A program made the translations under genes and the position numbers. Under the pieces are notes generated by a model, which ran no database searches, had not been told where the DNA came from, and saw only the letters and a list, made by a program, of their open reading frames with translations. Below are positions 4,770 to 54,560 of a stretch of 64,000 bases of DNA, piece after piece (positions within the stretch are counted from its first letter, which is position 1; each line of letters begins with the position of its first letter). The stretch comes from a virus, in IMG/VR virus record IMGVR_UViG_3300008116_000027, positions 12,886-76,885 of that record; one strand, given 5' to 3'.

Positions 4770-4974
4770 TCTTGTTTACTCTTTCCTTTATATCATTATA
4801 CAATTTTTCTCCAATAAATTTTTTATAAGAGCAAGATAAACAATATAAATAAATATTGTCTTCTAAATCTAGGTTAGATTGAAGAAGGCCTTGGTCCATT
4901 GGGCATTCAAGCCTAGGCACAAGACCCTCTTCTGATAAAGCTATATATTGAGATACATATTGTATCTGTCGCAA
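4762..4974 (-). CDS. small zinc-ribbon-like protein
   Basis: CPMD...CLSC; TTG start preceded by AAGGAG. Confidence 0.65.
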   Translation of the reverse strand: MRQIQYVSQYIALSEEGLVPRLECPMDQGLLQSNLDLEDNIYLYCLSCSYKKFIGEKLYNDIKERVNKNV

Positions 4975-4983
4975 AATTGCTCC

Positions 4984-5550
4984 TTAAGCTTTAGGGAATT
5001 GATTAATCAACTCCTTGGCCTTTCCTATTGAGTTAGGCCATGATGACCAATCTTTACCGCCCTTAGTCATATAGTACGTTATCTCTGCGTTTGTTACTGG
5101 ATCAAATAATTCCTTATTTGACACTAAATTGAATTTTTCTAATCTGTCTACACCAAGTTCCCCTAGCATATTAATTTGAAAAATCCCGTAAGATTTATCA
5201 CCAGTTGATTTGTTGTCGTTTAAAGCAAGCGGTCTCCCGTTAGACTCTACCCTAGCAACAGCCCAAGCTGTTTTTAAAGCAATTCCTTCAAATCCTACAG
5301 CCCATAATAAATCTTTTAAATCTTCAGCTGCAAGCATTTCAGAATGCTTATAAGTTTCATTACTGAACTTATTTATTATTTCTCTTTTTAGTTGTTTTTC
5401 GGTTTTTTGTACCTTTTCAGGCGCAGTTGTTAAAGCTTGACTCATTGTAGGTCCAGGCTGGACTGTAAACAAAAATAATGTTATCATTATAATAACAGTC
5501 CAATTATGAACTACATCGCTCAAACTTTGTTTGATTCTCTCCATTGGCAT
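4984..5550 (-). CDS. lysozyme-like/lytic transglycosylase with N-terminal signal or anchor helix (candidate endolysin)
   Basis: Catalytic ES (ARVESNG), SYGIFQIN, FDPVTNA, DWSSW; hydrophobic N-terminal segment; GGAGG RBS. Confidence 0.8.
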   Translation of the reverse strand: MPMERIKQSLSDVVHNWTVIIMITLFLFTVQPGPTMSQALTTAPEKVQKTEKQLKREIINKFSNETYKHSEMLAAEDLKDLLWAVGFEGIALKTAWAVARVESNGRPLALNDNKSTGDKSYGIFQINMLGELGVDRLEKFNLVSNKELFDPVTNAEITYYMTKGGKDWSSWPNSIGKAKELINQFPKA

Positions 5551-5628: not shown

Positions 5629-6618
5629 ATGAATATTTCATTTTCTACGCCTATAGTTAATTTAAGAACTAATAATGGATATGGATATGCAAGTAAAAAT
5701 ATAGTAAAATCTTTAAATAAACTAGGACACTTCACACCATTTCAAGATCCAAAATCAAAATTACAATTAAATTTTTCACAACCATCACATTTTAAATTAC
5801 ATAAAAATCAACATCAAATTAGTTATACTCCGTGGGAGTCCACAATAATCCCAGAAGAGTGGAAATATTACATGAATGCATGTGATGAAATATGGGTAAC
5901 TTCAGATTGGTGTGCAAATGTATTTGAAGATAATGGATTTAAAGTTTCTAATGTTTATCCACACGGTATTGACCCTATGTGGATCCCAAACAGAAGGCAA
6001 GATGACGGAGTAATTAAATTTTTACACATAGGGGAGCCAGCACCAAGAAAAGCTGGACAAATGGTATTAGATGCATTTGGACATTTATTCGGAAATAAAG
6101 ACGGATTCTCATTAACAATTAAAGCAGATCAAATAAATACCACCAGAGTATATAATAACTATTTAGATAAAAATATTTTAGGAACACCAGATAAATATTA
6201 TAATAACGTATATGTAATTATAGATGTCTTAAATGATGAGGAATTAGTAGAATTATACCAGTCTCATGATGTCTTAGTTTATCCAAGTTATGGTGAAGGA
6301 TTTGGCTTTATTCCATTACAAGCATTAGCAACTGGCATGCCAACAATATGTACAACAGGATGGGCACATTACGAAAATTATCTTGGTCCACTAAAATTAA
6401 AATCAGAATTAATAGATTCACCTTGGCCATTTCCACATCAAGGAAAAGTTTTTGAACCAAACTATCAACATTTACTTGAACTTATGAGAGATGTTTCAAT
6501 AAACTTTAATGCATATTCTGGATATTATTTTGCTCAGTCAACTAAAATACATAAAGATTATAATTGGGATCAGTTGACCAAGAATGCATTTAAAGATATT
6601 TTAAAAAAAATTTATTAA
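5629..6618 (+). CDS. GT-B glycosyltransferase (GT4-like)
   Basis: RKAG and PSYGEGFGFIPLQALATGMPTI signature; N-terminal GYG. Confidence 0.9.
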   Translation: MNISFSTPIVNLRTNNGYGYASKNIVKSLNKLGHFTPFQDPKSKLQLNFSQPSHFKLHKNQHQISYTPWESTIIPEEWKYYMNACDEIWVTSDWCANVFEDNGFKVSNVYPHGIDPMWIPNRRQDDGVIKFLHIGEPAPRKAGQMVLDAFGHLFGNKDGFSLTIKADQINTTRVYNNYLDKNILGTPDKYYNNVYVIIDVLNDEELVELYQSHDVLVYPSYGEGFGFIPLQALATGMPTICTTGWAHYENYLGPLKLKSELIDSPWPFPHQGKVFEPNYQHLLELMRDVSINFNAYSGYYFAQSTKIHKDYNWDQLTKNAFKDILKKIY

Positions 6619-6705: not shown

Positions 6706-8640
6706 ATGCCATTTACAATTGAAAACCCATATGAAAACTTTATTGCATTATCTAGATATGCAAGATGGATGCCAGAAGAAAATCGTCGTGAAACATGGAG
6801 CGAAACCGTAGATCGTTATTTTGTTTTTATGTTAGATCATTTGTTTAGAGAGTATTCGTACGAGCCATCATCAAAGTTAATCCAGGAATTAAAAGAAGCA
6901 GTTCTTAAAAGAAATGTTATGCCTTCAATGAGAGCAGTAATGACTTCAGGTCCAGCTTTAGAAAGAGATCATGTTGCTGGATACAATTGTTCATTTGTTC
7001 CAGTAGATTCTCCTCGTTCATTTGATGAAACAATGTATATTCTTATGTGCGGTACAGGAGTAGGATTTTCTGTTGAATATAAGTACATTAATAAATTACC
7101 AGCAGTTCCAGAATCATTAGAAAAATCTACAACCGTAATTACAGTAGAAGATTCTAAACAAGGATGGGCAAAAGCATATCGTGAACTTCTTGCAATGCTT
7201 TGGGCAGGACAAATTCCAGCAATTGATGTAACTAAATTGCGTCCAGCAGGAGCACGTCTTAAAACTATGGGCGGAAGATCTTCTGGCCCACAACCATTAG
7301 TTAATCTTTTTGATTTTACAATTAAAATATTTAAAAATGCAGTTGGAAGAAATTTAAAACCAATTGAATGTCATGACTTAATGTGTAAAATTGGTGAAGT
7401 AGTAGTTGTTGGTGGAGTTCGTAGATCCGCAATGATTTCTCTTTCTAATATTAATGACATTGAGATGGCGTCAGCAAAATCTGGCAACTGGTGGGAAACA
7501 AATCCACAACGTGCACTATCAAATAATTCTGTTGCATATTCTCGTAAACCAGAAATGGAACAGTTCATAGCAGAATGGAAAAATTTATATGATTCAAAAT
7601 CAGGAGAGCGTGGAATATACAATGTTGCAGCAGCACAGGCGCAAGCAGCTAAATATGGACGCAGGGATCCTGAAATACACTATGGAACAAACCCTTGCTC
7701 TGAAATTATTTTGCGTCCTTATCAGTTTTGTAACCTTTCAGAAGTCGTATTACGTGAAAAAGATACAATTGAGGATGTTGAAAATAAAGTACGACTTGCT
7801 ACAATTCTTGGTACCTGGCAATCAACCTTAACAGACTTTAAATATCTTAGAAAAATTTGGAAAGATAACACAGAAGAAGAAAGACTACTAGGGGTTTCTT
7901 TAACTGGACAGTTTGGGCATAAATTCTTTTCTGGAAAAGAAGATATTAATAAATTAGAAAAAACTCTGGTATCGCTTCGAGAGTCAGCCAGAAAAATAAA
8001 TTCTGAAGAAGCCAAAAAAATTGGTATACAGGAATCAGCAGCAATTACTTGTGTTAAACCATCTGGCACCGTATCTCAATTAGTAGGAGTGTCTTCAGGA
8101 ATGCATCCTTGGCATTCCAAGTATTATATTCGCACAGTTCGTGGATCAAAGGGAGACCCAATTTCTGTATTTTTAAAAGAAGTAGGAATTCCAGTAGAAG
8201 ATGATGTGATGAAGCCAAATGAAACTTATGTATTTTCATTTCCAATCAAAGCACCAGAAGAAGCAATTGTTAGAAGCGACCTTACAGCAATTGATCATTT
8301 AAATACTTGGTTGGTTTATCAGCGTGCATGGTGTGAACACAAGCCATCTATTACTGTTTCTGTAAAAGAAGATGAATGGATGGAAGTTGGATCATGGGTT
8401 TATAAAAACTTTGATGAAGTATCTGGAATCTCATTCCTACCCCACTCAGATCATTCATACAAACAAGCACCATATCAAGAAGTTACTAAAGAAGAGTACG
8501 AAGAGCTTTTGTCTAAAATGCCAAAAGAAATTAGATGGCAAGATCTTTCATTTTATGAAACAGAAGATGGAACTTCTACAAATGCTACGCTTGCATGTAC
8601 TTCAGACGGTAACTGTGAACTTGTAGATATTTCTGCATAG
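6706..8640 (+). CDS. nrdJ: class II (adenosylcobalamin-dependent) ribonucleotide reductase
   Basis: YNCSF, GGVRRSA, TNPCSEI, QFCNLSE, CVKPSGT and C-terminal C-x4-C pair; no beta-subunit gene next to it. Confidence 0.92.
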   Translation: MPFTIENPYENFIALSRYARWMPEENRRETWSETVDRYFVFMLDHLFREYSYEPSSKLIQELKEAVLKRNVMPSMRAVMTSGPALERDHVAGYNCSFVPVDSPRSFDETMYILMCGTGVGFSVEYKYINKLPAVPESLEKSTTVITVEDSKQGWAKAYRELLAMLWAGQIPAIDVTKLRPAGARLKTMGGRSSGPQPLVNLFDFTIKIFKNAVGRNLKPIECHDLMCKIGEVVVVGGVRRSAMISLSNINDIEMASAKSGNWWETNPQRALSNNSVAYSRKPEMEQFIAEWKNLYDSKSGERGIYNVAAAQAQAAKYGRRDPEIHYGTNPCSEIILRPYQFCNLSEVVLREKDTIEDVENKVRLATILGTWQSTLTDFKYLRKIWKDNTEEERLLGVSLTGQFGHKFFSGKEDINKLEKTLVSLRESARKINSEEAKKIGIQESAAITCVKPSGTVSQLVGVSSGMHPWHSKYYIRTVRGSKGDPISVFLKEVGIPVEDDVMKPNETYVFSFPIKAPEEAIVRSDLTAIDHLNTWLVYQRAWCEHKPSITVSVKEDEWMEVGSWVYKNFDEVSGISFLPHSDHSYKQAPYQEVTKEEYEELLSKMPKEIRWQDLSFYETEDGTSTNATLACTSDGNCELVDISA

Positions 8641-13640: not shown

Positions 13641-16115
13641 ATGTCAACAGTAAGAATTCAAGTAAGACGAGGTACTGCATCAGAATGGACCTCAGTAAAT
13701 CCTACACTAGCTGCAGGAGAACTAGGTGTTGAAACAGACACTAGAAAAATTAAAATTGGAACTGGAAGCACTGCTTGGACTAGCCTTTCTTACATAGCAG
13801 CAGACTCACCAGCAATTACAGAAATTGCACAAGACGCAATTGATCAAGCTCTTTCTATGGGCTCAGGTCTTACAAAGTCTTATAACGATAACACAAATAC
13901 AATTTCCCTTGGCATCGACGACTCAATTGTCGCACTTAAATCTTATGTTGACAGCCAGGTAGGTGGGTTACAAAATACAGTAACTTCAGACTATGTATTA
14001 TTAGCAGATGTTGGAAATGCAGGTGGACCTGCAAAATTAGATGCTGACGGAAACTTGCTTGTTCCAAAATCAAGCATTATTATAGAAGGATCATCAGCAG
14101 ATGCTCATGAAACCACACTAACAGTATCAAATCCAACATCAGATAGAACAATCACACTTCCAGACTCATCTGGTACAGTAGCACTAACATCAGACCTTGC
14201 ACCATATGCAACAACACAAGCATTAAATTCCGTAGTATCTTCATTGAATATTCATCAAGCAGTAAATGTTGCAACAACAGAACCGTTAGTAGCAACTTAT
14301 GCTGCTGGTTCCGCTGATAACGGCAATGGAACTGGAATTGGTGCAACATTAACAATGAACTCAAATGGCACTCTAACAATAGATGGCTTACAAGCAGAAA
14401 ATGGATTTAGAATATTAGTAAAAGATCAAGCAAACTTAGTTCATAATGGTATTTATGAAGTAACAATTGCAGGATCAGCTGGAGCACCAGCCGTTTTAAC
14501 TAGATCTGCAGACTACAATAACTCAGATGTAAACACACCTCTTGATGTTGCTAAAGGCGATGTCGTTTTTGTAACAGATGGAACAGAAAATGGATATAAA
14601 CAATTTTCTCAAATATACGCAGGAACTAACGCAGACGGCTCAGTAAAAATTGGATCTGAAAATATTGACTTTACTCAAATTTCAGGAGCAGCAACAATTA
14701 TAGCTGGAAATGGTATAACTAAATCAGGAAACACAATTAGTGTTGATGCTCAAGAATTTTTAGCAACATCTACCGCATCAAGTACATATTTAACTCAAGC
14801 AGATGCAGCAAATGACTATTTGTCACAAACAGATGCTGGGGCTACTTATTTAACTCAAGCAGATGCAGCTTTAACATATTTAAATCAAACAGACGCAAGT
14901 ACGACATACCTGTCACAAGCAGATGCAGGTACAACATACTTGTCTCAAGCAGATGCTGCAACAGATTATTTTGCTGTTACAACAGATCAAATTGAAAATG
15001 CCAATATTAAAATTGGCGCAGGAATTGCAGCAGATAAAATATCAGGAAACGCTGTAACACAAGCAGATACAGGAACTGTAACCAATACAATGCTTGCAGG
15101 ATCCATTGATAATAACAAATTATCAAACTCTACAATTTCAGGCATATCGCTTGGATCTAATTTAGAAACATTAACAATTGGAACTGGTTTAAGTGGTACA
15201 TCTTACAACGGTGGATCAGCAGTAACAATTGCAATTGATTCAACAGTTGCTACAGAGTCTTACGCAGACACCGCAGCATCAAATGCTCAAGGAGCAGCAG
15301 AAGATTACGCTGACGGACTTGCAGCAAATTACGAAGTTGCAGGAGCTGTTTCAACACACTCATCTGATACAACAAACGTACACGGAATTACAGATACAGC
15401 CCAAATTGCTCTTCTAGATGCTGCTACACAGCAATTTACAGGAGACATGGGAATTACTGGAGACTTAATTGTTGACGGTGACGTAACTGTTAATGGCGGA
15501 AGCTTTACAGCAAGCGCTACATCTATAACAATTGAAGATAATCTAGTTCAGCTTGCTCATCAAAACGCAGCAAATACCGTAGACTTAGGTCTTGTTGTAG
15601 CGTACAATGACGGCGCAGCAAAACACTCTGGTATAGTAAGAGATGTTTCTGCTAATAAATGGAAACTATTTAAAGGCGTAACAACAGAGCCTGCTACAAC
15701 AGTAGACTTTACAGAAGGATCACTTGATGACCTTGAGTTAAATGAAATTAAAACAGCTGGAGTAGTATTCTCAGACGGCACACAGACCAAAGAGGGTGTT
15801 CCTTCAAGAACTCCAATTATTTCAAAGACTGCAGACTATACATTGTCTGCGCTAACCGAGAGAGATTCATTAATTGAAGTTGACTCTTCTTCAGCAGTAA
15901 CAATTACAATTCCAACCAACTCAGCAGTTGCTTATCCAATTGGAACAACTCTAGATATTCTTGGAGTTAACACAGGACTAATCACAATCGCAGGAGATAC
16001 TGGTGTAACAGTAAATGCTACCCCAGGATTAAAGTTACGTACACAATGGTCATCCGCAACATTACTCAAGAGAGCAGAAAATTCTTGGGTAGTTTACGGC
16101 GACTTGAAATCATAA
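13641..16115 (+). CDS. long fibre protein with Mtd-N-like N-terminal domain
   Basis: RIQVRRGTASEWTSVNPTLAAGELGVETDT; 10-aa repeats; C-terminal domain shared with 24099-25202. Confidence 0.8.
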   Translation: MSTVRIQVRRGTASEWTSVNPTLAAGELGVETDTRKIKIGTGSTAWTSLSYIAADSPAITEIAQDAIDQALSMGSGLTKSYNDNTNTISLGIDDSIVALKSYVDSQVGGLQNTVTSDYVLLADVGNAGGPAKLDADGNLLVPKSSIIIEGSSADAHETTLTVSNPTSDRTITLPDSSGTVALTSDLAPYATTQALNSVVSSLNIHQAVNVATTEPLVATYAAGSADNGNGTGIGATLTMNSNGTLTIDGLQAENGFRILVKDQANLVHNGIYEVTIAGSAGAPAVLTRSADYNNSDVNTPLDVAKGDVVFVTDGTENGYKQFSQIYAGTNADGSVKIGSENIDFTQISGAATIIAGNGITKSGNTISVDAQEFLATSTASSTYLTQADAANDYLSQTDAGATYLTQADAALTYLNQTDASTTYLSQADAGTTYLSQADAATDYFAVTTDQIENANIKIGAGIAADKISGNAVTQADTGTVTNTMLAGSIDNNKLSNSTISGISLGSNLETLTIGTGLSGTSYNGGSAVTIAIDSTVATESYADTAASNAQGAAEDYADGLAANYEVAGAVSTHSSDTTNVHGITDTAQIALLDAATQQFTGDMGITGDLIVDGDVTVNGGSFTASATSITIEDNLVQLAHQNAANTVDLGLVVAYNDGAAKHSGIVRDVSANKWKLFKGVTTEPATTVDFTEGSLDDLELNEIKTAGVVFSDGTQTKEGVPSRTPIISKTADYTLSALTERDSLIEVDSSSAVTITIPTNSAVAYPIGTTLDILGVNTGLITIAGDTGVTVNATPGLKLRTQWSSATLLKRAENSWVVYGDLKS
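14787..14966 (+). repeat. six 30-nt coding repeats, YL(T/S/N)Q(A/T)DAxx(T/D)
   Basis: Visible in both translation and DNA. Confidence 0.85.
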
Positions 16116-16127
16116 GGAGAATTATAA

Positions 16128-17465
16128 ATGAGTAAGAGATCTGGTAGAAAATCCCAAGCAGCAAATGACTTTTTAGAGCCAAAACCTGTAGAAAATTTAG
16201 TAGCTACAGATGTAGGAACTTCTAGAGCATACAATGACGGAGCAGTAAATCTATCATGGGAGTTACCTGCAGGATCACCTCCAGCAACCTCTTACTCAAT
16301 TACAACAACCCCAGCATCAACAACACAAACTACATCTAATACCTCTTTTACATTTACTGGGCTATCATCAGATACAGCCTATACATTTTCAATAACTGGA
16401 AGCAATGCTGCAGGAACTTCTGCTGCTACAACTTCTAGTTCTGTAACAGCAACTACGGTTCCTCAATCTCCACAATCAGTTTCAGCAGCTTCTCCAAACG
16501 CAAACGAAGATGTTGTTTCATGGTCAGCAGGTGCTTCTGGTGGTAAAACAATTACTAGTTATACCGTAATATCTTCAGATGGACCATCATACACAAATTC
16601 AACTTCACCAAAAACTATTTCAGAAACAGCTGGAACTTCACAATCTTATACAGTTTATGCAATTAACGATAATGGAACATCAGTAGGAGCAACTACTGGT
16701 TCTGTTACTACAACAGCACCGTTCTTCCCACCGTTCTTCCCATATTTCCCACCGTTCTTCCCATATTTCCCACCGTTCTTCCCATTCTTCCCGTTCTTCC
16801 CACCATATTTCCCACCATTCTTCCCATTCTTCCCGTTCTTCCCACCATATTTCCCACCGTTCTTCCCATATTTCCCACCGTTCTTCCCATTCTTCCCGTT
16901 CTTCCCACCGTTCTTCCCACCGTTCTTTCCACCAAGATTCGGTCCATATTTCCCAGCGTGTGTTGACGGAGATACTTTAATCTTAACTAGCGAAGGTCCA
17001 AAACCTGCTAGAGAGATAAAAGTAGGAGATAAACTACTAACAGTTGATGCTTTAGGGTTAGCCGATCAACCTAACAAAACACCTCTTGAAATTAATGTTC
17101 AAGATTTGATGATAAGTAACATGGTACACACAGAAGTTACAAATGTTATAGTCTCAGACAAACAGGACAGAGTTTACTTCAATGGAAACAAAGAAGTTCA
17201 GTTTACAGAAACTCATCCAATATTCGTAAAACGAAATAACGAATATCGTGTAGTCGAAGCAGGACTAGTACAACAAGGAGATGTTTTAATAAATATCTCA
17301 GTAGATAACTTATCTGAAACTTTAGATATGACCAAGGTAATATCAGAAGTTGAAGTGTCTAAGGTAGATAAAATAACTTTAGATTTAGCAAAAGATGTGT
17401 ACACATTTAGCTGCGATCCACATAATTGGTACTTCGCAGGAGATATATTAACACACAATAAGTAA
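16128..17465 (+). CDS. FN3 x2 / Pro-Phe-Tyr repeat / C-terminal Hint-domain protein
   Basis: FN3 motifs (NLSW, TGLSSDTAYTFSI; VSW...YTVYAIN); ~79-aa P/F/Y tract; Hint domain starts at Cys (nt 16959), has TETH block B and ends THNK-stop. Confidence 0.85.
   Translation: MSKRSGRKSQAANDFLEPKPVENLVATDVGTSRAYNDGAVNLSWELPAGSPPATSYSITTTPASTTQTTSNTSFTFTGLSSDTAYTFSITGSNAAGTSAATTSSSVTATTVPQSPQSVSAASPNANEDVVSWSAGASGGKTITSYTVISSDGPSYTNSTSPKTISETAGTSQSYTVYAINDNGTSVGATTGSVTTTAPFFPPFFPYFPPFFPYFPPFFPFFPFFPPYFPPFFPFFPFFPPYFPPFFPYFPPFFPFFPFFPPFFPPFFPPRFGPYFPACVDGDTLILTSEGPKPAREIKVGDKLLTVDALGLADQPNKTPLEINVQDLMISNMVHTEVTNVIVSDKQDRVYFNGNKEVQFTETHPIFVKRNNEYRVVEAGLVQQGDVLINISVDNLSETLDMTKVISEVEVSKVDKITLDLAKDVYTFSCDPHNWYFAGDILTHNK
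16719..16955 (+). repeat. low-complexity coding repeat of PPFF/PFF/PYF units
   Basis: Imperfect tandem 9-12-nt units such as ccaccgttcttc and ccatatttc. Confidence 0.9.
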
Positions 17466-17478
17466 AATAATAATCACC

Positions 17479-17502
17479 TAAAGCCCCCAAACGGGGGCTT
17501 TA
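17479..17502 (+). terminator. intrinsic terminator-like hairpin
   Basis: TAAAGCCCCC-AAAC-GGGGGCTTTA. Confidence 0.7.
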
Positions 17503-17508
17503 GTATTC

Positions 17509-17537
17509 TTGACAGTTAATTATATATTATATATAAT
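17509..17537 (+). promoter_or_regulatory. consensus sigma70 promoter of the oxygenase cluster
   Basis: TTGACA 17509-17514, 17 nt, TATAAT 17532-17537. Confidence 0.8.
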
Positions 17538-17561
17538 GTATACATAGTAGAAAGATAAAAT

Positions 17562-18281
17562 ATGCAAGATATTTATGATATAAACGATAATCCATGGTTT
17601 ACAAAAGATAGATCAGAATCAACTTCTTTTAGGGTAAATAGATCTTTTGGTAATATTAAAGTTTTAAATCCAGGTATTGGATTAAATATTTATGAATCAG
17701 CTATTCCAAGCAGTGTTTGCGAAACATCAATTAAAACATTAGAAGATAAGCTAACAAATGGCAACATGTATAAATGGTCAGAAGCACAAGTTACGACCTC
17801 AGACAAACCAGTAAAATCTGCAAGAGATTGCGTAGATTTTAAATTTAAACCAGAAAATCTTGGAAAAAGAAATGAAAATAATGCAGAACTTCTAGATATG
17901 CATGAATCCATTTATAATGTATTAAAAAAATGCGTAGATGATTATTGTCAATATTGGGGAATTAATGTTGTATATTATGAAGCTTTTAATTTTGTGAAAT
18001 ACACCAGCCCAGGACAACATTTTAGAGTTCATGCTGATCATGGTCCACACTATAATTGTACAGTTTCAGCTGTAATATATTTAAATGATGATTACGAGGG
18101 CGGGGAGATAGCATTTCCAAGATTAGATAAATTAGTATATAAACCAAAACGTGGTGACGTAGTAATTTTTCCATCAAACTATATATACGAACATTCTTCA
18201 GAACCAATGATTTCTGGAGATAAATACTCTGTTGTAATTATGATGGATATTAACCTATTAGGACATAAGGAGAACAATTAA
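17562..18281 (+). CDS. 2OG-Fe(II) oxygenase, prolyl-4-hydroxylase-like
   Basis: VHAD, YLNDDYEGGE, FPSNYIYEH, GDKYS. Confidence 0.9.
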   Translation: MQDIYDINDNPWFTKDRSESTSFRVNRSFGNIKVLNPGIGLNIYESAIPSSVCETSIKTLEDKLTNGNMYKWSEAQVTTSDKPVKSARDCVDFKFKPENLGKRNENNAELLDMHESIYNVLKKCVDDYCQYWGINVVYYEAFNFVKYTSPGQHFRVHADHGPHYNCTVSAVIYLNDDYEGGEIAFPRLDKLVYKPKRGDVVIFPSNYIYEHSSEPMISGDKYSVVIMMDINLLGHKENN

Positions 18282-18937
18282 TGAATAAACAAACTTGGTC
18301 AAGCGCAGAAGACTTAGGATCAGGAATTTGGGTATATAGAGATGTTTTAACAAAAGATTTAGATATTATTAATAGGCTAGAAACAAATTTAGATGGAAGC
18401 ACTCCAGGTTGGACTTGGCAGCCAGCTTATGTTGGATATCAAGAAAGAATGCCAGAATATAGAGACTGCGTAGACTTTAAATTTAAAAAATCAGATATAG
18501 CAAATGATAAGTCTCCTATATCATTAAAAATGCAAGAATTGTGGCAAGACTGCTATGATAGGCAAGCACCAGCAGTAGAAGATTATTGTCAAAAACATAA
18601 TATACATAAACTTCAATATTGGGAAGCTTTTAATTTTATTAAATATGTTCCTGGACATCACTTCATGGAGCACCATGATCATGGATTTTCATATAATTGC
18701 ACTGTATCTTTAGTTGGCTATATTAACGATGATTACGAGGGCGGAGAATTATATTTCAGATTACAAAATTTAAATATTAAACCAAAAGCTGGAGATTTAT
18801 ATATTTTCCCTTCAACATATATGTATCCTCATCAAGCAAAAGTAGTTAAGTCTGGAACAAAATATTCATTAGTTACAATGTTAGATTATAGCGCAAAATT
18901 TCATACTCCAGCAATGTACGAAGATACTGGTAATTAG
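18281..18937 (+). CDS. 2OG-Fe(II) oxygenase, prolyl-4-hydroxylase-like
   Basis: EHHD, YINDDYEGGE, FPSTYMYPH, GTKYS. Confidence 0.9.
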   Translation: MNKQTWSSAEDLGSGIWVYRDVLTKDLDIINRLETNLDGSTPGWTWQPAYVGYQERMPEYRDCVDFKFKKSDIANDKSPISLKMQELWQDCYDRQAPAVEDYCQKHNIHKLQYWEAFNFIKYVPGHHFMEHHDHGFSYNCTVSLVGYINDDYEGGELYFRLQNLNIKPKAGDLYIFPSTYMYPHQAKVVKSGTKYSLVTMLDYSAKFHTPAMYEDTGN

Positions 18938-19656
18938 TGTCTATATTAAAGGCATATAAAAGACATCCAAATTCTTTTATAATTGAACCTATTTCAGTAA
19001 AAAGACAATGGATGGACGAAACTCCAGACGGTCATGCGTATAGGTGTTTTCCAGTAACAATGGCAAATACAATAGGTTGGACATTATCGTGTCCAGTGGA
19101 CGTATCATTTATATGGGATGGGCAAATAGACACAACGCCAGATAGAGTTAAAATTTTATCTGGTCAAGAATATTGTTACACTGGAAGAGGCCAAGGTTCA
19201 GTAAGTTTTAATACAGGTCTTATTCTAAAATCAGAAAAACATATAAGTGTATTAAGTATTACTCCACAAAATTATTTTTATGAAGATTTTGAAGTAATGT
19301 CATCATTAATAAGTACATCTTTTTTTAATGTTGATTTTCCATTAGCAATTAAAGTTAAAATTCCAAATAAAGAAATTATTATAAAAGCTGGCACTCCCAT
19401 TGCTACAATTATTCCGATTTCTCTTACATCATTAAAAGATGAATCTATAGAAATAGAAAATTTTATAAAGCCAGAAGATTATGATGCTAAATTAAAAAGT
19501 TATGGAGATGCTGCTCAAGTAATAAATCAATCTGGACAGTGGACAGATTGGTATAGAGATGCTATTGATGAAACTGGCACATCTATTGGAGAGCATGAAA
19601 CTAAAGCTTTAAAATTAAAAGTAATAGATAATACAACAAAGGAAAATAACAATTAA
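18937..19656 (+). CDS. conserved hypothetical protein (DUF6065-like)
   Basis: RQWMD...AYRCFPVTMANTIGW and GTPIATIIP motifs. Confidence 0.65.
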   Translation: MSILKAYKRHPNSFIIEPISVKRQWMDETPDGHAYRCFPVTMANTIGWTLSCPVDVSFIWDGQIDTTPDRVKILSGQEYCYTGRGQGSVSFNTGLILKSEKHISVLSITPQNYFYEDFEVMSSLISTSFFNVDFPLAIKVKIPNKEIIIKAGTPIATIIPISLTSLKDESIEIENFIKPEDYDAKLKSYGDAAQVINQSGQWTDWYRDAIDETGTSIGEHETKALKLKVIDNTTKENNN

Positions 19657-20377
19657 TATAATTAAATTTGTATCAAATAGGCCTTGGTTAAATAAAGAAA
19701 GTATTTCTAAGCCAACAGCAGCCATAAAAGAAATACCAGAATGGTTTAGAAAGGCAGATAGATTTGCAGTTAATCCAATTACTAAAGATTATTGGAAAGG
19801 GCCAGACGGAGGCAAAGTTCCTACATGGAAGGCTTGCCCAGCTATATTTGATATATTAGGCACTGGCTATGTTCTTAAAACACCATGCGACATTAAATTT
19901 TATTTAAAAAATAATAAAATGTCTGTTGAAATAAAAGAAGATAGGTATAAAGATTTTTGTTCTCAAAGAGACCCTATGCCACAATTTGTTCATCCAAAAG
20001 GTTACCATAAAGAACATTTTGCATGGTACCCAGACTGGGCAATTGAGTTGCCAGAAGGATACAGTGCTTTATACACAACCCCATTTAATAGGTTTGATTT
20101 ACCATTTTTAATGACTACTGGAATTGTAGATAATGATAAAATTAATTTACCAGGAACAATGCCATTTTTTATAATTAGAGGATTTGAAGGAGTGCTACCA
20201 GCAGGAACTCCATATGCTCAAATAATTCCATTTAAAAGAGAAGATTGGTCATCAGAAATATTTATAGAAAATCCAAATAATTTATACAAAAAGAATCAAA
20301 AAAATAGTGATAAATATAGAGTAAAAGATGGTGGAGTCTATAAAAATGAAGTTTGGTCTAAAAGAACATATGAATAG
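19652..20377 (+). CDS. conserved hypothetical protein related to the preceding gene; probable non-canonical ATT start
   Basis: Frame is open 89 codons upstream of ATG19919 and encodes IPEWFRK...TWKACP...GYVLKTPCD; C-terminal GTPYAQIIPFKREDW. Confidence 0.7.
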   Translation: MNIIKFVSNRPWLNKESISKPTAAIKEIPEWFRKADRFAVNPITKDYWKGPDGGKVPTWKACPAIFDILGTGYVLKTPCDIKFYLKNNKMSVEIKEDRYKDFCSQRDPMPQFVHPKGYHKEHFAWYPDWAIELPEGYSALYTTPFNRFDLPFLMTTGIVDNDKINLPGTMPFFIIRGFEGVLPAGTPYAQIIPFKREDWSSEIFIENPNNLYKKNQKNSDKYRVKDGGVYKNEVWSKRTYE

Positions 20378-20394
20378 AATGATATAATAAATAT

Positions 20395-21066
20395 ATGGAC
20401 AATAATTTAGCAAATGGTGCAGCAAATTGGGATAACCGTGTTTCAATAACACCACCTGGATTTTTTGGCAACAGTCCAGAGCATATTCAGGCAAGAGAAA
20501 ATTTTATGACTGAAGAAGAGAGATTATTCTTATTAGAATCAGCTAAATCAATTAATGAGTGGGATAGAACCGAAACTCATTATAATGATGACGGAATTGT
20601 AATTTATGACTCTTCTTATTGGGATAACCGTGTTGCATCAAGACCAATTCTTGATAAAATAAATCCAGAGATATCTGTTGTAATTGAAAAACTTGTTGAA
20701 AGATTAAAAGTTGAAGTTGATAATCATTTTAATGTTGATGCTAAACCTACAAGTCCAGCAATTGTTAGATGGATGAAAGGATATAGACAAGAGCCACATG
20801 CAGACAAACAGTTGCAAAATGGAGAGCCAAATGATTTTCCTTGGTATGATCTTGCTGGATTATTTTATTTAAATGATGACTACGAAGGCGGAGAACTTTA
20901 TTTTATGCATCATGATGTACAATTTAAACCAAAACCTGGAGCAGCATATTTCTTCCCAGGAGATGTAGGATACAGTCACGGAGTAAAAGAAATAACAAAT
21001 GGAATTAGATATGTTATTCCATTTTTTTGGACAATTTTAAAACATACTGGTGATAAGCAGCCATGA
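20395..21066 (+). CDS. 2OG-Fe(II) oxygenase, prolyl-4-hydroxylase-like
   Basis: PHAD, YLNDDYEGGE, YSHGV, GIRY. Confidence 0.9.
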   Translation: MDNNLANGAANWDNRVSITPPGFFGNSPEHIQARENFMTEEERLFLLESAKSINEWDRTETHYNDDGIVIYDSSYWDNRVASRPILDKINPEISVVIEKLVERLKVEVDNHFNVDAKPTSPAIVRWMKGYRQEPHADKQLQNGEPNDFPWYDLAGLFYLNDDYEGGELYFMHHDVQFKPKPGAAYFFPGDVGYSHGVKEITNGIRYVIPFFWTILKHTGDKQP

Positions 21067-21857
21067 CAGTAGATTACACAGAAATATATCCTAAAATATA
21101 TGTATACCACAATTCAATAAAAGATCCTAATTTTTTTTTAAAGCAGTCTTTAAATCAATATAAAATTGGTTGGAAGGATTGGTCATTTTTTGGAAGATAT
21201 ATAGGAATTGGCGGGAAAACAGCTAAATATAAAAAATTTCCAACCTGGGAAGAATTTAAAGAGTCTATAGATTTACAAGAAAATCAACAACTAAGTTTAG
21301 AGTATATTGATAAGTTTTATCACAACACTAAACATTATATAGATAATAATTTAATTACTTTAAACGAATGGGCATACGAGTCTTCCTCTTTATGTGAATA
21401 TGATATAGCAAAAGGACATGACGGAGAATTCTCTATGGCCTATCACTCAGACTTTATTGTGCCAGAAAAAAATTGGCCAGGATTAAAATTTGAAATATCA
21501 GTAACAACTTATCTTAATGATGATTACGATGACGGTGAGTTGTGTTTTGCTATAGATAACGATTTATTTTCTTATAAACCTAAAGCTGGAGATATGATTA
21601 TTTTTCCATCAAGACCACCATATTTTCATGGAGTAAGAAAACATAAAAATAAAAATAGATATATGATTAGAGGATTTTGGCTATCTTCTTACGAAGGAAG
21701 TCTTGAATGGCATGAGGGATTGCTTAAATACGGTAAAGAAGAGTGGGAAAAAATGCAAAGAATCGAACTAGAAAAATATACCATAGAAAATATACCTTCT
21801 CCATCAGAATACGCATCTTCTTATTCTAGAGATAATGAAAGATTAAATATAAAATGA
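21063..21857 (+). CDS. 2OG-Fe(II) oxygenase
   Basis: YHSD, YLNDDYDDGE, YFHGV, NRY. Confidence 0.88.
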   Translation: MTVDYTEIYPKIYVYHNSIKDPNFFLKQSLNQYKIGWKDWSFFGRYIGIGGKTAKYKKFPTWEEFKESIDLQENQQLSLEYIDKFYHNTKHYIDNNLITLNEWAYESSSLCEYDIAKGHDGEFSMAYHSDFIVPEKNWPGLKFEISVTTYLNDDYDDGELCFAIDNDLFSYKPKAGDMIIFPSRPPYFHGVRKHKNKNRYMIRGFWLSSYEGSLEWHEGLLKYGKEEWEKMQRIELEKYTIENIPSPSEYASSYSRDNERLNIK

Positions 21858-22663
21858 AAAATTTAGAATTTATAACAATATATCCTGGAGTAAACGTATA
21901 CAGAAATGTTTTTCAGGATGTAAATGATTTTTTAGAAAAAGCAAAAAAATGTGAAAAATGGGAGCAATGGTATACATTTGGATCAATGCTTGCTCTTCAA
22001 GAAATGCCAATTAAATTTGATTCATTTCCAAATAAAGATGAGTATATGACATCAAGAAAATGGGACGACGGTACAGAAAATTCAAAAATAAGAGGACAGC
22101 TAGCAGAAGAAGTAGCAGAAATATTTTATGATGTAACAAGTCATTATATAAAAATGCATCCAGAGCATTCATTACAAAATTGGATAAAAAACCCCGCTTC
22201 TGTTAATAGATACAATGATGGATCAAGTATATCTGATAACTATTCAATGAACTACCATACAGACTATAATCAAGAAATTGAAGATTCAAGTGGTATTAAA
22301 TTTGGAATTACTACAACATTTTATTTAAATGATGACTATAAAGATGGAGAAATTTGTTTTAAAATTAATGATCATTTTATTTCTCATAAACCACAAAAGG
22401 GAGACGTAATAGTATTTCCATCTAAGCCACCATACTATCATGCAGTTAGAAAATCTAGTGGAACAGATAGATATATGATTAGATCATTTTGGCAATTTGA
22501 GTATGAAGGATCAAAAGAATGGCTAGAAAATCAAGAAAAATACGGCAAAGATGTTTGGGCGTCTATGGAAGAAAAAAGAATTAGCAAAGAAAGATTTATG
22601 TATCAAATTGAAGGAGAGTCTATGCATAAATTTTTTGGAAAAGATAATGGAATTAAACTATGA
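21854..22663 (+). CDS. 2OG-Fe(II) oxygenase
   Basis: YHTD, YLNDDYKDGE, YYHAV, DRY; paralog of the preceding gene. Confidence 0.88.
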   Translation: MKNLEFITIYPGVNVYRNVFQDVNDFLEKAKKCEKWEQWYTFGSMLALQEMPIKFDSFPNKDEYMTSRKWDDGTENSKIRGQLAEEVAEIFYDVTSHYIKMHPEHSLQNWIKNPASVNRYNDGSSISDNYSMNYHTDYNQEIEDSSGIKFGITTTFYLNDDYKDGEICFKINDHFISHKPQKGDVIVFPSKPPYYHAVRKSSGTDRYMIRSFWQFEYEGSKEWLENQEKYGKDVWASMEEKRISKERFMYQIEGESMHKFFGKDNGIKL

Positions 22664-23502
22664 GACAATGTACTTGTGGAAGATCTAATGCGTATCCATA
22701 TTGTGATGGAACTCATAAAAAGAAAAAGGAGCCAATAATGAAAGACGGCATGATAGATGTTTTAGATAAAAGTAAATTTATTGTTTTGCAAGACGAAGAA
22801 GTTCCAGAAAATAAAGCTGGTGTACTTGGAGTCTATACCAATAAAATTGTAGAAATACCCAACTTTATTGACCCAGCAATAGTTCCCAAGATGATTCATT
22901 TTTTTGAAAATTGTAATGTTGAGTGGGGAGATATTGCGTTTTACGGATCTTCTGGAAAAGGTATTTTAACTGACTCTGAAACAATGAAAAAATTTGGATT
23001 GCCAGATGAATTTTTTGATAAGTTAAAAAATAAATATCAGGAAACAGTAGAACTGGTATTCGGCAGAGAAGTTAGAGCAAATACTTCTCATGCACAAAAA
23101 TGGGATGTTGGAGGATTTGCAAGCCCGCATTCAGATAATTCAGATAATGAAGGAAAACCTAATGCTTTTGAAATAAATAAGTATGTTGGAATTTTATACT
23201 TAAACGATGACTATGAGGGTGGGGAATTATATTTTTGCGATAAAGATAATGAGATGAATCCATATCTATCATTTAAACCAAATGTATATTCTTATTATGT
23301 ATTTCCTGGAGGGTATGAAAATATTCACGGAGTATCAGAAATTACTAAAGGAACAAGATACACTATGGTATCATTTTGGGATTTTGCAGATTTAGTATAT
23401 GACGATGCTACTTTAGAAAAATGGAAAGAAGAAGAAAAGCAAGTTAGAATTGAACAGGCTGCACAAAAAGAAGAATGGCTAAAAGGAAATAAATATGCCT
23501 AA
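22660..23502 (+). CDS. CDGSH [2Fe-2S] motif fused to a 2OG-Fe(II) oxygenase
   Basis: N-terminal CTCGRSNAYPYCDGTH; PHSD, YLNDDYEGGE, IHGV, GTRY. Confidence 0.85.
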   Translation: MRQCTCGRSNAYPYCDGTHKKKKEPIMKDGMIDVLDKSKFIVLQDEEVPENKAGVLGVYTNKIVEIPNFIDPAIVPKMIHFFENCNVEWGDIAFYGSSGKGILTDSETMKKFGLPDEFFDKLKNKYQETVELVFGREVRANTSHAQKWDVGGFASPHSDNSDNEGKPNAFEINKYVGILYLNDDYEGGELYFCDKDNEMNPYLSFKPNVYSYYVFPGGYENIHGVSEITKGTRYTMVSFWDFADLVYDDATLEKWKEEEKQVRIEQAAQKEEWLKGNKYA

Positions 23503-24091
23503 TGTTCAAAGATTTGAAAAAATATCATATTATAAAAACGTTATAGACGATCCTAAATCACTAATCAATTTAATAGAGGAGTCAGATAAAAATTTAACGT
23601 CAGATACTAGTATCCCAAGTTGGCAAGAATGGAATGCTAGCGGAGATAGTCCTTATCAATTTGGTTATCAAAAAAGATTTAACAATAATGTTGAAGCTGA
23701 TACTTCTCTAGAAATTAAAAAAATAAATATGACATTAAAAAATGCTATTGTAGATGCATCTAATGATTATTCAAAAGAATATGGTATAAATATAGGAACA
23801 TTAATGCCTTTATCTATAAGTAAGTATTCCACTGGAAAATCTATGGGCCCTCATGTAGACGATTATAATAATGGAGATGACCCAAACATATCAGTAGTTT
23901 TATATTTAAATGATAATTATGACGGTGGTGAGATTAATTTCCCAAATCAAAACATAACAATAAAACCAGAAGCAGGAAGCATTGTGATATTCCCATCTGT
24001 AGAGCCATATTACCACGAATCCCTACCAGTTATTTCTGGTATTAAATATATGTCTCCTGGATTTTGGCGTAAAGTAGACAAGGTGGTATAA
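23495..24091 (+). CDS. 2OG-Fe(II) oxygenase, prolyl-4-hydroxylase-like
   Basis: PHVD, YLNDNYDGGE, YYHES, GIKY. Confidence 0.9.
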   Translation: MPNVQRFEKISYYKNVIDDPKSLINLIEESDKNLTSDTSIPSWQEWNASGDSPYQFGYQKRFNNNVEADTSLEIKKINMTLKNAIVDASNDYSKEYGINIGTLMPLSISKYSTGKSMGPHVDDYNNGDDPNISVVLYLNDNYDGGEINFPNQNITIKPEAGSIVIFPSVEPYYHESLPVISGIKYMSPGFWRKVDKVV

Positions 24092-24098
24092 TTTAAAA

Positions 24099-25202
24099 AT
24101 GGCCACTATTCCAAATGATAAAAACTGGAGATTCCCAGACTACACAGATTCACCAGATATACCAAGAGATATTTCTTATTTAGCTGCAGATATTTCAGAG
24201 TATATAGATTCTCACCCAGGTCCACAAGGTGAGCAGGGGGATACTGGACCAGCAGGACCAGCAAACGTTTTATCAGTCGGAACAGTAACAACTGGACCAG
24301 CAGAGTCTTCAGCCTCAGTTACAATTACTGGTACATCACCAGAGCAAACAATCAATTTTACAATTCCTCGTGGCGATACTGGAGCAACTGGTGCAACTGG
24401 CGCACAAGGTATTCAGGGAATACAGGGCATACAAGGAGAACAAGGAATTCAAGGTATACAAGGAGAAAAGGGCGACAAGGGCGATACTGGTGCAACTGGC
24501 GCAACAGGACCTCAAGGTATACAAGGCGAAAAAGGTGATGATGGTGACCAGGGCATACAAGGAGAACAAGGAACTGGCGTTAATATATTAGGTTCTTATG
24601 CTAATCTTACAGCACTACAGACAGCACATCCAACTGGAAGCTCTGGAGATGCATATTTAATAGATAATGATTTATATGTTTGGTCTCAATCAACATCTTC
24701 ATGGATAAACGTTGGAACAATAAGAGGCCCACAAGGTATTCAAGGAGAGCATGGCATACAGGGTCCAAAAGGCGATAAGGGAGATACTGGCGATACTGGA
24801 GCAACTGGTGCACAAGGACCGCAAGGCCCACAAGGCGAACCAGGATTAACAGGAGCAGACGGAGCAGACGGAGCAGACGGAGCAGACGGTCAAGACCTTA
24901 CATCAGTATTTACAATATCACAAAAATCTACATCTTACACATTAGTGGCATCAGATCTTGGAAAATTAATAGAAATGTCAAATGGCGGAGATCTAATTAT
25001 ACCAACAGATTCAGAAATATTTGATATCGGATCTACTATAGATATAATTCAAACTGGATCATCGCAAGTAACAATAGGCGGAGATACTGGTGTAACAGTA
25101 AACTCAACCCCAGGATTAAAATTAAGAGCACAGTGGTCATCTGCAACATTAATTAAAAGAGGAAATAATCTTTGGGTTGCTGTAGGCGATTTGAGCGTCT
25201 AA
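24099..25202 (+). CDS. collagen-like fibre protein
   Basis: Three Gly-X-Y tracts; C-terminal domain ending LRAQWSSATLIKRGNNLWVAVGDL is shared with 13641-16115. Confidence 0.85.
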   Translation: MATIPNDKNWRFPDYTDSPDIPRDISYLAADISEYIDSHPGPQGEQGDTGPAGPANVLSVGTVTTGPAESSASVTITGTSPEQTINFTIPRGDTGATGATGAQGIQGIQGIQGEQGIQGIQGEKGDKGDTGATGATGPQGIQGEKGDDGDQGIQGEQGTGVNILGSYANLTALQTAHPTGSSGDAYLIDNDLYVWSQSTSSWINVGTIRGPQGIQGEHGIQGPKGDKGDTGDTGATGAQGPQGPQGEPGLTGADGADGADGADGQDLTSVFTISQKSTSYTLVASDLGKLIEMSNGGDLIIPTDSEIFDIGSTIDIIQTGSSQVTIGGDTGVTVNSTPGLKLRAQWSSATLIKRGNNLWVAVGDLSV

Positions 25203-25203
25203 A

Positions 25204-26118
25204 ATGCCAAAAAGAAATCGTGGTAGATCTGGTACAAGAAAAACAAATGTTCCAAATTATTTAGGACAAACTTCTACCGACACGCAAACATCTTTAACAA
25301 ATCTTGGATTTGTTTATATATATAATACAACCGATACTACAACAGAGTCTGATAATTTAAAAATATATTCACAAAGTATTTCTTCTGGTCAATTATATAC
25401 TTTGGGATCACAAGTTTCAGTTGAATATTATGTGTATGTTGCGCCGTTCTTCCCACCGTTCTTTCCATTTTTCCCACCCTATTTCCCACCGTTCTTTCCA
25501 TTTTTCCCACCCTATTTCCCACCGTTCTTTCCATTTTTCCCACCCTATTTCCCACCGTTCTTTCCATTTTTCCCACCAAGATTTGCCCCAGTGGGTCCTT
25601 ATTTCCCAGCATGCCTAGATGAAAACACTTTAGTGTTAACTAACGAAGGAATGAAGCCAGCTAAAGATATTAAGGTCGGGGATACATTATTAACAGTTGA
25701 TGCATTAGGATTGTCTAATCAACCAAATGCAACCCCACTTGAAATTAATGTTAAAAATCTTAATATAACAAACTTAAGATCTACACAGGTTACAAATGTA
25801 ATTGTTTCTGATAAAACAGATAGAGTCTATTTTAATGAAAATACAGAAATTCAATTTACTGAAACTCACCCAATATTCGTAAAACGAAATAATGAATATC
25901 GTGTAGTAGAAGCGGGATCAGTTCAAGAGGGAGATATCATTATAATTATAAATATAAGTCTCTTAAAAGAACAAATAAATATATCAGAAGTAATAACTGA
26001 AACTGTAATAAATAAAGTTGAAAAGAAAACTTTAGATGTTGCAAAAAATGTATATACGTTTAGCTGTGATCCATATAATTGGTATTTTGCTGGAAATATA
26101 TTAACTCACAATAAGTAG
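25204..26118 (+). CDS. PASTA / Pro-Phe-Tyr repeat / C-terminal Hint-domain protein
   Basis: VPNYLG...L..LGF...IYSQS..SG PASTA-like pattern; repeat tract; Hint domain from Cys (nt 25612) with TETH, ending THNK-stop. Confidence 0.85.
   Translation: MPKRNRGRSGTRKTNVPNYLGQTSTDTQTSLTNLGFVYIYNTTDTTTESDNLKIYSQSISSGQLYTLGSQVSVEYYVYVAPFFPPFFPFFPPYFPPFFPFFPPYFPPFFPFFPPYFPPFFPFFPPRFAPVGPYFPACLDENTLVLTNEGMKPAKDIKVGDTLLTVDALGLSNQPNATPLEINVKNLNITNLRSTQVTNVIVSDKTDRVYFNENTEIQFTETHPIFVKRNNEYRVVEAGSVQEGDIIIIINISLLKEQINISEVITETVINKVEKKTLDVAKNVYTFSCDPYNWYFAGNILTHNK
25453..25584 (+). repeat. 33-nt tandem repeat (PPFFPFFPPYF) x3 plus one variant copy
   Basis: ccaccgttctttccatttttcccaccctatttc occurs three times; the fourth copy ends PPRF. 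Confidence 0.9.
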
Positions 26119-54330: not shown

Positions 54331-54560
54331 CAGAAAAAAGTAAATGGCAACAATATAAAGAAAAAAATGGCACAACTCCATTAGACCTTTTAAATCCACA
54401 CGTTAAAATTGCCACAGACGATATTAAAAATAATAGAATGCAAATATGTTACTCATGCCCAGAATTAATAAAATTAACAACACAATGCAAACAATGTGGA
54501 TGCCTTATGAAATTAAAAACTAAACTAGAAGAATCAAAATGCCCAATAGGTAAATGGTAA
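54327..54560 (+). CDS. small Cys-rich metal-binding protein
   Basis: CYSCPE...CKQCGC.M..KTKL...CPIGKW. Confidence 0.75.
   Translation: MTEKSKWQQYKEKNGTTPLDLLNPHVKIATDDIKNNRMQICYSCPELIKLTTQCKQCGCLMKLKTKLEESKCPIGKW

Follow-up and report, generated by a model that had tools for sequence, protein, structure and literature searches.

We analysed a 64,000-nucleotide stretch of viral DNA (positions 12,886–76,885 of IMG/VR virus record IMGVR_UViG_3300008116_000027; hereafter the window), whose fibre module encodes a protein with a long tract made almost only of proline, phenylalanine and tyrosine and, directly downstream, a cassette of seven 2-oxoglutarate (2OG)-Fe(II) oxygenases and two DUF6065 proteins. 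Our reading, to which we give a probability of about 0.6, is that this cassette, from an uncultured freshwater tailed phage, hydroxylates the tract, most probably at its prolines. The tract as substrate is supported comparatively, by synteny in related viruses, by the number of enzymes that accompany each kind of tract, by one enzyme orthogroup specific to a sequence motif and by a near-isogenic pair of loci.

The tract protein (16128–17465, plus strand, 445 aa) consists of a basic N-terminal peptide, two FN3 domains (fn3 match E 5e-13), a tract of ~80 residues, nearly all Pro, Phe or Tyr (~16722–16958), and a C-terminal Hint domain. The cassette follows on the same strand, with oxygenases o1 (17562–18281) and o2 (18281–18937), DUF6065 type A (dA, 18937–19656) and type B (dB, 19652–20377), and oxygenases o3 (20395–21066), o4 (21063–21857), o5 (21854–22663), o6 (22660–23502) and o7 (23495–24091), of which o4 and o5 are a related pair.

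Covariation of the oxygenase cassette with the tract

We gathered ~250 related viral loci and annotated them with hidden Markov models (HMMs) built from the window enzymes, with one iteration on the first matches. The FN3-tract gene of the type found at 16128–17465 served as the anchor, and a forward survey covered 86 unique anchors with at least 8 kb of downstream sequence. Tracts with at least 28% proline and at least 28% aromatic residues define a Pro-rich aromatic class (n = 70), next to a low-proline 'FG' class (n = 14). Over 100 distinct freshwater viral contigs share a constant unit made up of a fibre gene that ends in an adaptor domain, the FN3-tract gene and the oxygenase/DUF6065 cassette. 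The 70 Pro-rich anchors are followed directly by 2–9 oxygenases (median 6) and 1–3 DUF6065 genes, with essentially none upstream, whereas the 14 FG anchors have 0–2 oxygenases (median 1). A tree built from the N-terminal 200 residues of the anchors requires 4–7 changes of tract class, and all four independent, well-supported pairs are concordant.

The association also holds when read from the enzymes. A reverse survey seeded with DUF6065 type B returned at least 588 matching IMG/VR stretches, of which the best 80 were kept and 51 had enough upstream flank. A P/F-tract gene ends within 1.5 kb 5' of the cassette in 43 of these 51 loci and lies 2–4 kb upstream in six more. The first-pass annotation of the window had linked oxygenase clusters to genes that carry both repeats and a Hint domain; across genomes the co-occurrence is found in both directions, but it is tied to the Pro-rich tract and is independent of Hint. 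Two FG-type loci encode different candidate tailoring enzymes. L118 encodes an Asp/Asn beta-hydroxylase-family protein (PF05118; 12696–13301), two DUF6065 proteins, two oxygenases and several ~200-aa proteins of no known family, and in L047 (3985–5957) the two Hint genes enclose a GT25 glycosyltransferase, a methyltransferase and a single oxygenase.

Reciprocal-best orthologs of the cassette genes are retained to different degrees in 69 Pro-rich loci. The core member o2 is found in all 69, followed by dA (67), dB and o3 (65 each), o6 (63) and o7 (59), while o1 (47), o5 (30) and o4 (23) are more sporadic. The distribution of o1 follows a single feature of the tract. Among 112 full-size unique anchors, those whose tract contains one or more aromatic-Pro-aromatic motifs all have an o1 ortholog, and those without such a motif all lack it (112/112). 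In the first 86 anchors, o1 accompanies all 47 tracts with three or more such motifs and is missing from 38 of the 39 others; for 31 further anchors sampled via DUF6065, the rule holds at one or more motifs, and the only two motif-less loci, L192 and L210, are without o1. The tree needs nine changes each for o1 and for the motif, and five of five independent, well-supported pairs agree. The match persists where o1 lies 1–5.6 kb from the anchor (10 of 47 loci).

A second set of cassette genes tracks a different unit. Wherever the tract has at least five Pro-Pro pairs, o3 is present (65/65 loci), and it is missing from 17 of the 21 others. Such tracts similarly accompany dA, found in 65 of 65 loci with Pro-Pro-rich tracts versus 3 of 21 without them, and o6, with exceptions. 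Cross-controls revealed no link between the Pro-Pro count and o1, or between the single-Pro motif (FPF) and o3 or o6.

L184 and L210 form a natural minimal pair; their 231-aa anchors are near-identical outside the tract. L184 has the tract PPYF(PYF)4PPSF... and L210 has (PPYF)4PPSF...; since the flanking codons are shared, the tract units changed in place. Immediately after the anchor, L184 carries o1, which is cleanly missing in L210. In L184, a ~25-nt intergenic motif that bears a ribosome-binding site stands on either side of the o1 gene, and L210 retains one of the two copies. The motif and the matching enzyme therefore changed together, through two separate small events. The intergenic element (TCAAATA.TAA.TAGGAGAAA; 4908–4935 and 5660–5690 in L184, 9267–9294 in L210) precedes successive cassette genes and appears to be a recombination site for the gain or loss of single genes. 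The earlier proposal that the cluster tailors the repeats thus gains support from synteny, enzyme number, the o1 match and this pair, all of it comparative rather than biochemical.

Cassette enzymes and DUF6065 proteins

All seven cassette oxygenases pass the PF13640 cut-off of 27 bits, with scores of 37–51 bits (50 for o1, 37 for o6 and 51 for o7). An alignment of eight window paralogs shows in each the HxD...H iron triad and a K/R-Y pair ~10 residues past the distal His, as the first-pass annotation had described for the seven genes between the two Hint genes. Within the ortholog sets of o1 and o2, neither the triad nor the basic 2OG-binding residue varies. In profile searches of the PDB, o1 and o2 orthologs match Bacillus anthracis prolyl 4-hydroxylase (P4H) at E 7e-6 and 3e-7, respectively, and further matches are P3H1, LH3, the P4H of virus PBCV-1 (5c5t, for o2) and PiuC, all of them protein hydroxylases. 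Neither single-sequence and profile searches of the PDB nor Pfam gave a match to AlkB-like or TET/JBP-like enzymes. These nearest solved relatives bear out the earlier P4H-like label and support an assignment of the cassette oxygenases, by family, to P4H-like protein hydroxylases, with predicted prolyl activity. In PHROGs, the oxygenases fall in phrog_61, the generic family of phage 2OG-Fe(II) oxygenases, and their closest cultured homologs are in cyanomyoviruses (27–41% identity). Two minus-strand open reading frames (ORFs) near the start of the window (2691–3500 and 3518–4312) are weakly oxygenase-like, matching the oxygenase HMM and not Pfam.

The o6 protein begins with a 26-residue extension (22660–22740) that contains a CDGSH-like Cys motif, scoring 29.0 bits against the zf-CDGSH cut-off of 29.5. 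We considered this extension as a general feature of o6 and rejected it; it is present in only 5 of 65 orthologs, most of which begin at an internal Met (MKNGMID), and is either a local addition of recent origin or an alternative start.

The cassette is preceded by a terminator hairpin with an 11-bp stem (17478–17503, plus strand) and by a sigma-70 promoter (17509–17537, plus strand; TTGACA-17-TATAAT) that matches the consensus at 12 of 12 positions. The consensus promoter noted for the cluster in the first pass is thus confirmed, and 12 different intergenic sequences from the window's clade all show the 12/12 match. Outside this clade, the promoter is weaker or missing, or the gap between anchor and cassette measures only ~20 nt.

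Both DUF6065 genes reported in the cluster are present. Type A matches PF19541 at E 2e-30 (106 bits versus a cut-off of 26.6) and type B matches phrog_7084 at E 5.6e-21. A 152-aa ORF had made the second gene look truncated, and we reject this. The dB frame has no stop from 19640 onwards and shares 91% identity over 241 aa with a 242-aa homolog in L018, so the gene is full length. Where relatives have ATG, the window lacks ATG, GTG or TTG; an ATT at 19652, 8 nt past AAGGA and overlapping the stop of the preceding gene, is probably the non-canonical start.

An AlphaFold2 model of DUF6065 type A (predicted local distance difference test, pLDDT, 90) matches dUTPase with a VIA-align Z of 11.2 (unrelated folds score ~4 or less) and a Foldseek E of 6e-5, so the predicted fold is dUTPase-like. 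Type B keeps I-D-x-D and G-T-P-x-x-Q-x-I-P-F, which we take to recall dUTPase motifs 3 and 4; type A has I-S-T-S instead. In a search of cultured phages, DUF6065 homologs were found in haloarchaeal tailed viruses only. Although the genes are where the first-pass annotation placed them, in the presumed tailoring cluster, a dUTPase-like fold is not that of an obvious tailoring enzyme. A literature search, whose incomplete coverage does not prove absence, found no paper that mentions DUF6065.

Tract proteins, Hint domain and fibre genes

The window has a second tract protein (25204–26118, plus strand, 304 aa) with the same layout as the anchor. Its head is a PASTA-like domain (res. 13–78, E 1.7e-5; pLDDT ~90), followed by a 56-residue P/F/Y tract (25444–25611). 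In both proteins, the tract leads through GPYFPA into a Cys (Cys278 in the anchor, Cys137 in the second protein) that opens a 168-aa Hint domain (16959–17462 and 25612–26115), which ends in HNK (THNK in the anchor) and a stop. This layout of head, tract, GPYFPA|C and Hint is as first described. Both tracts are tandem repeats at the DNA level, the second holding 3.9 perfect 33-nt copies, and in an AlphaFold model built on 33 sequences the second tract has a pLDDT below 50 versus ~90 for the head and Hint. A search of the ESM Atlas with the FN3-tract part of the anchor returned generic viral FN3 clusters only. In the close relatives L031, L037 and L038, the second tract gene, which again follows the collagen fibre gene, encodes only 148–149 aa, with a P/F tract and without Hint.

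A third class of protein (850–960 aa, N-terminus MPLNIFDGS.W) also ends in a tract and Hint and is encoded ~6–8 kb upstream of the anchor in L100, L110, L112, L114, L119, L125, L126 and L165. Its tract is of the APPGFF type, like that of the same phage's anchor, or of the TPTPTP type.

Thirteen close relatives show no variation at Cys1, the block B motif TETH or the terminal HN of the Hint domain. Cys1 is at least 90% conserved across 33 diverse relatives, and Q replaces the H of TxxH in many distant ones. The AlphaFold2 model of the domain (res. 137–304 of the second tract protein, pLDDT ~90) finds as its top Foldseek match the bacterial intein-like (BIL) domain 2lwy from Clostridium thermocellum (E 1e-8, TM 0.79), followed by the Tetrahymena BUBL domain BIL2 (6y75), mini-inteins and the Hedgehog autoprocessing domain (1at0); by this model, the predicted fold is closest to BIL domains. 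The Pfam Intein_splicing and Hint models score 27–31 bits, below their cut-off of 35.8. The residue after HN is Lys, then a stop, in the window, and K, L, F, G, Y or R in relatives, never C, S or T. An identity as an intein was rejected, since HN is present without a Cys, Ser or Thr +1 nucleophile or a C-extein, and splicing is impossible because Lys and the stop come right after HN. The chemistry predicted from the conserved residues is thioester formation at the Ala/Cys junction.

A full HMMER search returned Hint homologs in 165 cluster representatives below 50% identity. Most share the plan of a head, a low-complexity tract, a Cys and a C-terminal Hint. The head often has an MSKRxGRKSQxxNDFLxP N-terminus with two FN3 domains, or a PASTA-like domain, and the tract varies by lineage (PFFPPFF, SPPGFFAPPGFF, FTPFGFTPFG, FSPFGVFG, YSFVPYSF, PPPVIPP, TPTPT and the proline-free NFYNYYNYSNF). 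Among cultured phages, Hint matches occur only in jumbo Erwinia/Dickeya phages (annotated 'virion structural protein', 28% identity) and in Phage NCTB, annotated 'tail protein, contains intein domain'.

Anchors differ in whether they carry Hint at all. The domain is missing in 31 of the 70 Pro-rich anchors, all of which retain the cassette, and the anchor tree implies 9–13 gains or losses, with no link to enzyme number. Hint-less anchors stop soon after the tract, in a conserved knob rich in Cys (C.A.YCW.CPC..C.C), in an acidic tail or in a very short ending such as RFY or GFGY. The knob, found in L065, L074, L078, L084, L085, L087, L090 and L143 and sometimes preceded by a (GV)n run, looks like an alternative C-terminal module, by its sequence possibly a disulfide or metal knot. 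The first-pass view of Hint as integral to the system is therefore abandoned, and Hint is an intact end module, predicted to be self-processing, that the system can do without, not the system's centre. The bracketing of the cluster by two Hint genes likewise proved to be confined to the window's own clade, a second Hint gene being found in 8 of 70 Pro-rich loci.

The tract proteins are encoded behind fibre genes. The tail fibre gene (13641–16115, plus strand, 824 aa) has an Mtd_N-type N-terminus (PF18454, E 1.8e-15) and a C-terminal adaptor domain of ~100 aa (15783–16112, plus strand) that matches phrog_8780, 'minor tail protein'. As reported in the first pass, a collagen-like fibre gene follows the cluster (24099–25202, plus strand; PF01391, E 1e-21), and its product ends in the same phrog_8780 adaptor domain. 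It contains G-X-Y runs of 23 and 19 triplets, with repeats poor in proline. In the window, a tract protein comes next after each adaptor-ended fibre, and the gene directly 5' of the anchor ends in the adaptor domain for 99 of 101 unique anchors. Because an adaptor-ended fibre gene directly precedes them, the tract proteins hold the position of fibre-tip partners. We rejected the collagen fibre itself as a constant partner, since only 18 of 70 Pro-rich loci have such a gene within 10 kb.

Fibre-tip partners encoded just 3' of the fibre gene are familiar from the gp38 adhesin of T4/T2 and from Tfa of Mu/P2. The adaptor domain is 46% identical to minor tail proteins of Gordonia phages, in which the adaptor gene is followed by a gene with an Arg-rich N-terminus and no tract. 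The gene order is the same in all of these, a fibre with a conserved C-terminal domain and then a partner with a basic N-terminus; however, none of these partners is known to contain an aromatic/proline tract or a Hint domain, or to be encoded beside a hydroxylase cassette.

The region downstream of the fibre genes and cassette encodes an HK97-type portal, a prohead protease and a major head protein and includes a 2127-aa gene of tape-measure size. The portal is 56–59% identical to Streptomyces phage portals; this likeness and that of the fibre C-terminal domain to Gordonia phages make an actinobacterial host plausible from sequence. Just 5' of the fibre block are an SLT lysozyme-like gene (4984–5550, minus strand), a GT4-type glycosyltransferase (5629–6618) and a class II-like ribonucleotide reductase (6706–8640). 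The source record spans 76.9 kb at a G+C of ~33%, and several studies dated 2017 to 2025 recovered near-identical DNA in metagenomes of lake water and other freshwater. No RNA runs are listed among the sequencing runs with near-identical sequence, and a DNA search of a cultured phage collection found no relative of the window.

Proposed mechanism, alternative explanations and related systems

We infer that the tract is the substrate, proline the modified residue, the Ala/Cys junction the site of Hint cleavage and the virion the location of the protein. The partner of each fibre comprises a basic N-terminal peptide, a small binding head, a tract of 55–80 residues and a BIL-type Hint. In the infected cell, enzymes of the P4H/P3H/lysyl-hydroxylase family would modify the tract, most probably at its prolines, with paralogs that may read different contexts, o1 a proline between two aromatics and o3, o6, o7 and dA the Pro-Pro units. 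Hydroxylation would make this very hydrophobic and disordered repeat more polar, stiffer or adhesive, so that it forms a stalk on an appendage associated with the fibre. Where present, Hint would most likely undergo an N-to-S acyl shift at Ala/Cys, leading to self-excision or to transfer of the tract C-terminus to a nucleophile. It would act as an optional end module, in whose place many relatives have a knob rich in Cys, an acidic tail or nothing.

A bolder form of this proposal, which we rate as rather unlikely as a whole, is a 'hydroxylation code' in which one paralog serves each context, the product is a sticky fibre-tip stalk, the dUTPase-fold proteins act as co-factors or holders, and Hint ligates the stalk to a virion protein or the host envelope. 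By analogy, either the proline or a neighbouring aromatic might then be hydroxylated, and the stalk might be mussel-glue-like or extensin-like.

Several observations weigh against hydroxylation of the tract by the cassette. Independent pairs are few, and the sign test for o1 and its motif gives p 0.0625, the lowest value attainable with five pairs. The Pro-Pro correspondence is imperfect; L210 has six Pro-Pro pairs yet is without o3 and dA, and L131 and L145 are without o6 and o7. As the o1 gene usually adjoins the tract gene (27 of 47 loci have it within 200 nt), the match may be inflated by physical linkage and block recombination. The terminator and sigma-70 promoter that separate the anchor gene from the cassette in the window's clade mean that the two may be expressed at different times. 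DUF6065 has the fold of a nucleotide enzyme, and its cultured homologs adjoin thymidylate synthase and DNA polymerase genes. Cultured members of phrog_61 are found in cyanomyoviruses and a Methylophilales phage, in other gene contexts, and the cassette is not the sole oxygenase pool, because an eighth PF13640 oxygenase (56 bits) lies far from it at 54554–55165 and a ninth is encoded in the same record upstream of the window. Finally, the tracts of distant members of the Hint family have little or no proline, as in NFYNYYNYSNF, so hydroxyproline is not universal to the wider family.

Some of these points would be expected if the oxygenases were general auxiliary genes, engaged in 2OG drawdown, DNA repair or host takeover within a plastic region, and the tract a flexible linker. 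Membership of phrog_61, the extra copies elsewhere in the genome and the cassette's own promoter all fit, as do the closest cultured homologs in cyanomyoviruses, for which such roles have been proposed (PMC3037559). We consider this explanation unlikely, as it leaves unexplained the dependence of enzyme number on tract type, the 112/112 match, the minimal pair and the synteny seen from both directions. It is quite unlikely, too, that the tract only co-varies while the enzymes hydroxylate other virion proteins, such as the collagen-like fibre, at Pro or Lys of its G-X-Y repeats as happens in animal and mimivirus collagen, or the adaptor fibres. The collagen-like gene directly follows the cassette in the window, the nearest solved relatives include LH3 and P3H1, and L047 has its GT25 gene near a single oxygenase; but the low frequency of collagen-like genes near Pro-rich anchors and the Pro-poor repeats in the window argue against the former substrate, and the adaptor-bearing fibre, present whatever the enzyme content, cannot explain the covariation.

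The dUTPase-like fold of DUF6065 (Z 11.2) and the thymidylate synthase and DNA polymerase neighbours of its homologs in haloarchaeal viruses raise the further possibility that the cassette, as a dUTPase-fold enzyme with oxygenases, modifies nucleotides, DNA or a small molecule. This is improbable for PF13640 enzymes without an AlkB or TET/JBP match, encoded inside a fibre module, and it gives no reason for the covariation of enzymes with tract motifs. A short repeated unit beside tailoring-type enzymes, with a Hint domain able to break a peptide bond, recalls a ribosomally synthesized and post-translationally modified peptide (RiPP) precursor with multiple cores freed by Hint, an option raised in the first pass. 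Hint cuts only at its own N-terminus, though, and would not free single repeats, and 31 of the 70 anchors do without it. The folded FN3 and PASTA domains and the constant place of the protein behind a fibre gene do not fit either, and Pfam and PHROGs assigned no cassette gene to a protease, transporter or recognition-element family; a RiPP-like precursor is thus highly improbable.

Hydroxylation of the tract by the cassette has partial counterparts in known systems. In plant extensins and arabinogalactan proteins, which are served by multi-gene P4H families, and in the mussel protein Mfp-1, hydroxylated Pro/Tyr-rich repeats form stiff polyproline-II or adhesive material. These share with the phage system low-complexity Pro/Tyr-rich repeats and several P4H paralogs with differing sequence preferences, but they depend on the eukaryotic secretory pathway and on Ser-Pro or Lys/Tyr-rich motifs, whereas the phage tract is cytoplasmic, consists almost purely of Pro/Phe/Tyr and is joined to FN3 and sometimes to Hint. 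The hydroxyproline-rich glycoproteins of plants are also treated in a preprint (bioRxiv 10.1101/2024.03.26.586753).

Among viruses, the nearest parallel is chlorovirus PBCV-1, whose P4H-family enzyme hydroxylates proline in short tandem Pro-rich repeats of the same virus (Eriksson et al. 1999, cited in PMC7019647). According to the latter source, no hydroxyproline was found in virions and the enzyme has no assigned role. The likeness lies in a virus-encoded P4H-family enzyme and Pro-rich repeats of the same virus, the PBCV-1 enzyme (5c5t) being among the solved relatives of o2, and the difference in a single enzyme, from a eukaryotic giant virus, that is not clustered with its substrate gene. 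The bacteriophage system instead has 3–11 paralogs directly after the repeat gene that co-vary with its motifs.

Cyanomyovirus 2OG-Fe(II) oxygenases, with proposed roles in 2OG/nitrogen signalling and DNA repair (PMC3037559), belong to the same broad family and also occur as several paralogs per genome, but no substrate gene has been proposed for them. The Hint domain shares with BIL, BUBL and Hedgehog domains its predicted fold, Cys1, TxxH, a C-terminal position and the lack of a splicing nucleophile, and therefore it can only cleave or transfer the upstream part. That part is here the low-complexity tract of a fibre-associated protein, and the domain is freely lost or replaced among close relatives, which sets it apart from the other three. 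For comparison, BUBL BIL domains conjugate ubiquitin-like domains.

Searches of the literature on phage hydroxyproline, prolyl hydroxylase and BIL domains or tail fibres found no such bacteriophage cassette, although they were incomplete and leave absence unproven. If our reading is correct, the window encodes the first bacteriophage multi-enzyme hydroxylase cassette that tailors a virion-associated repeat protein, and one branch of the abundant phage 2OG-Fe(II) oxygenases of unassigned function would gain a concrete substrate. The rule that links o1 to the aromatic-Pro-aromatic motif is a specific prediction that can be checked. Under the same condition, the comparison also exposes a large family of phage surface proteins, built from a head, a low-complexity tract and a predicted self-processing Hint, whose tract chemistry varies by lineage and may reflect a new principle by which phages in lakes adhere or assemble their fibres.

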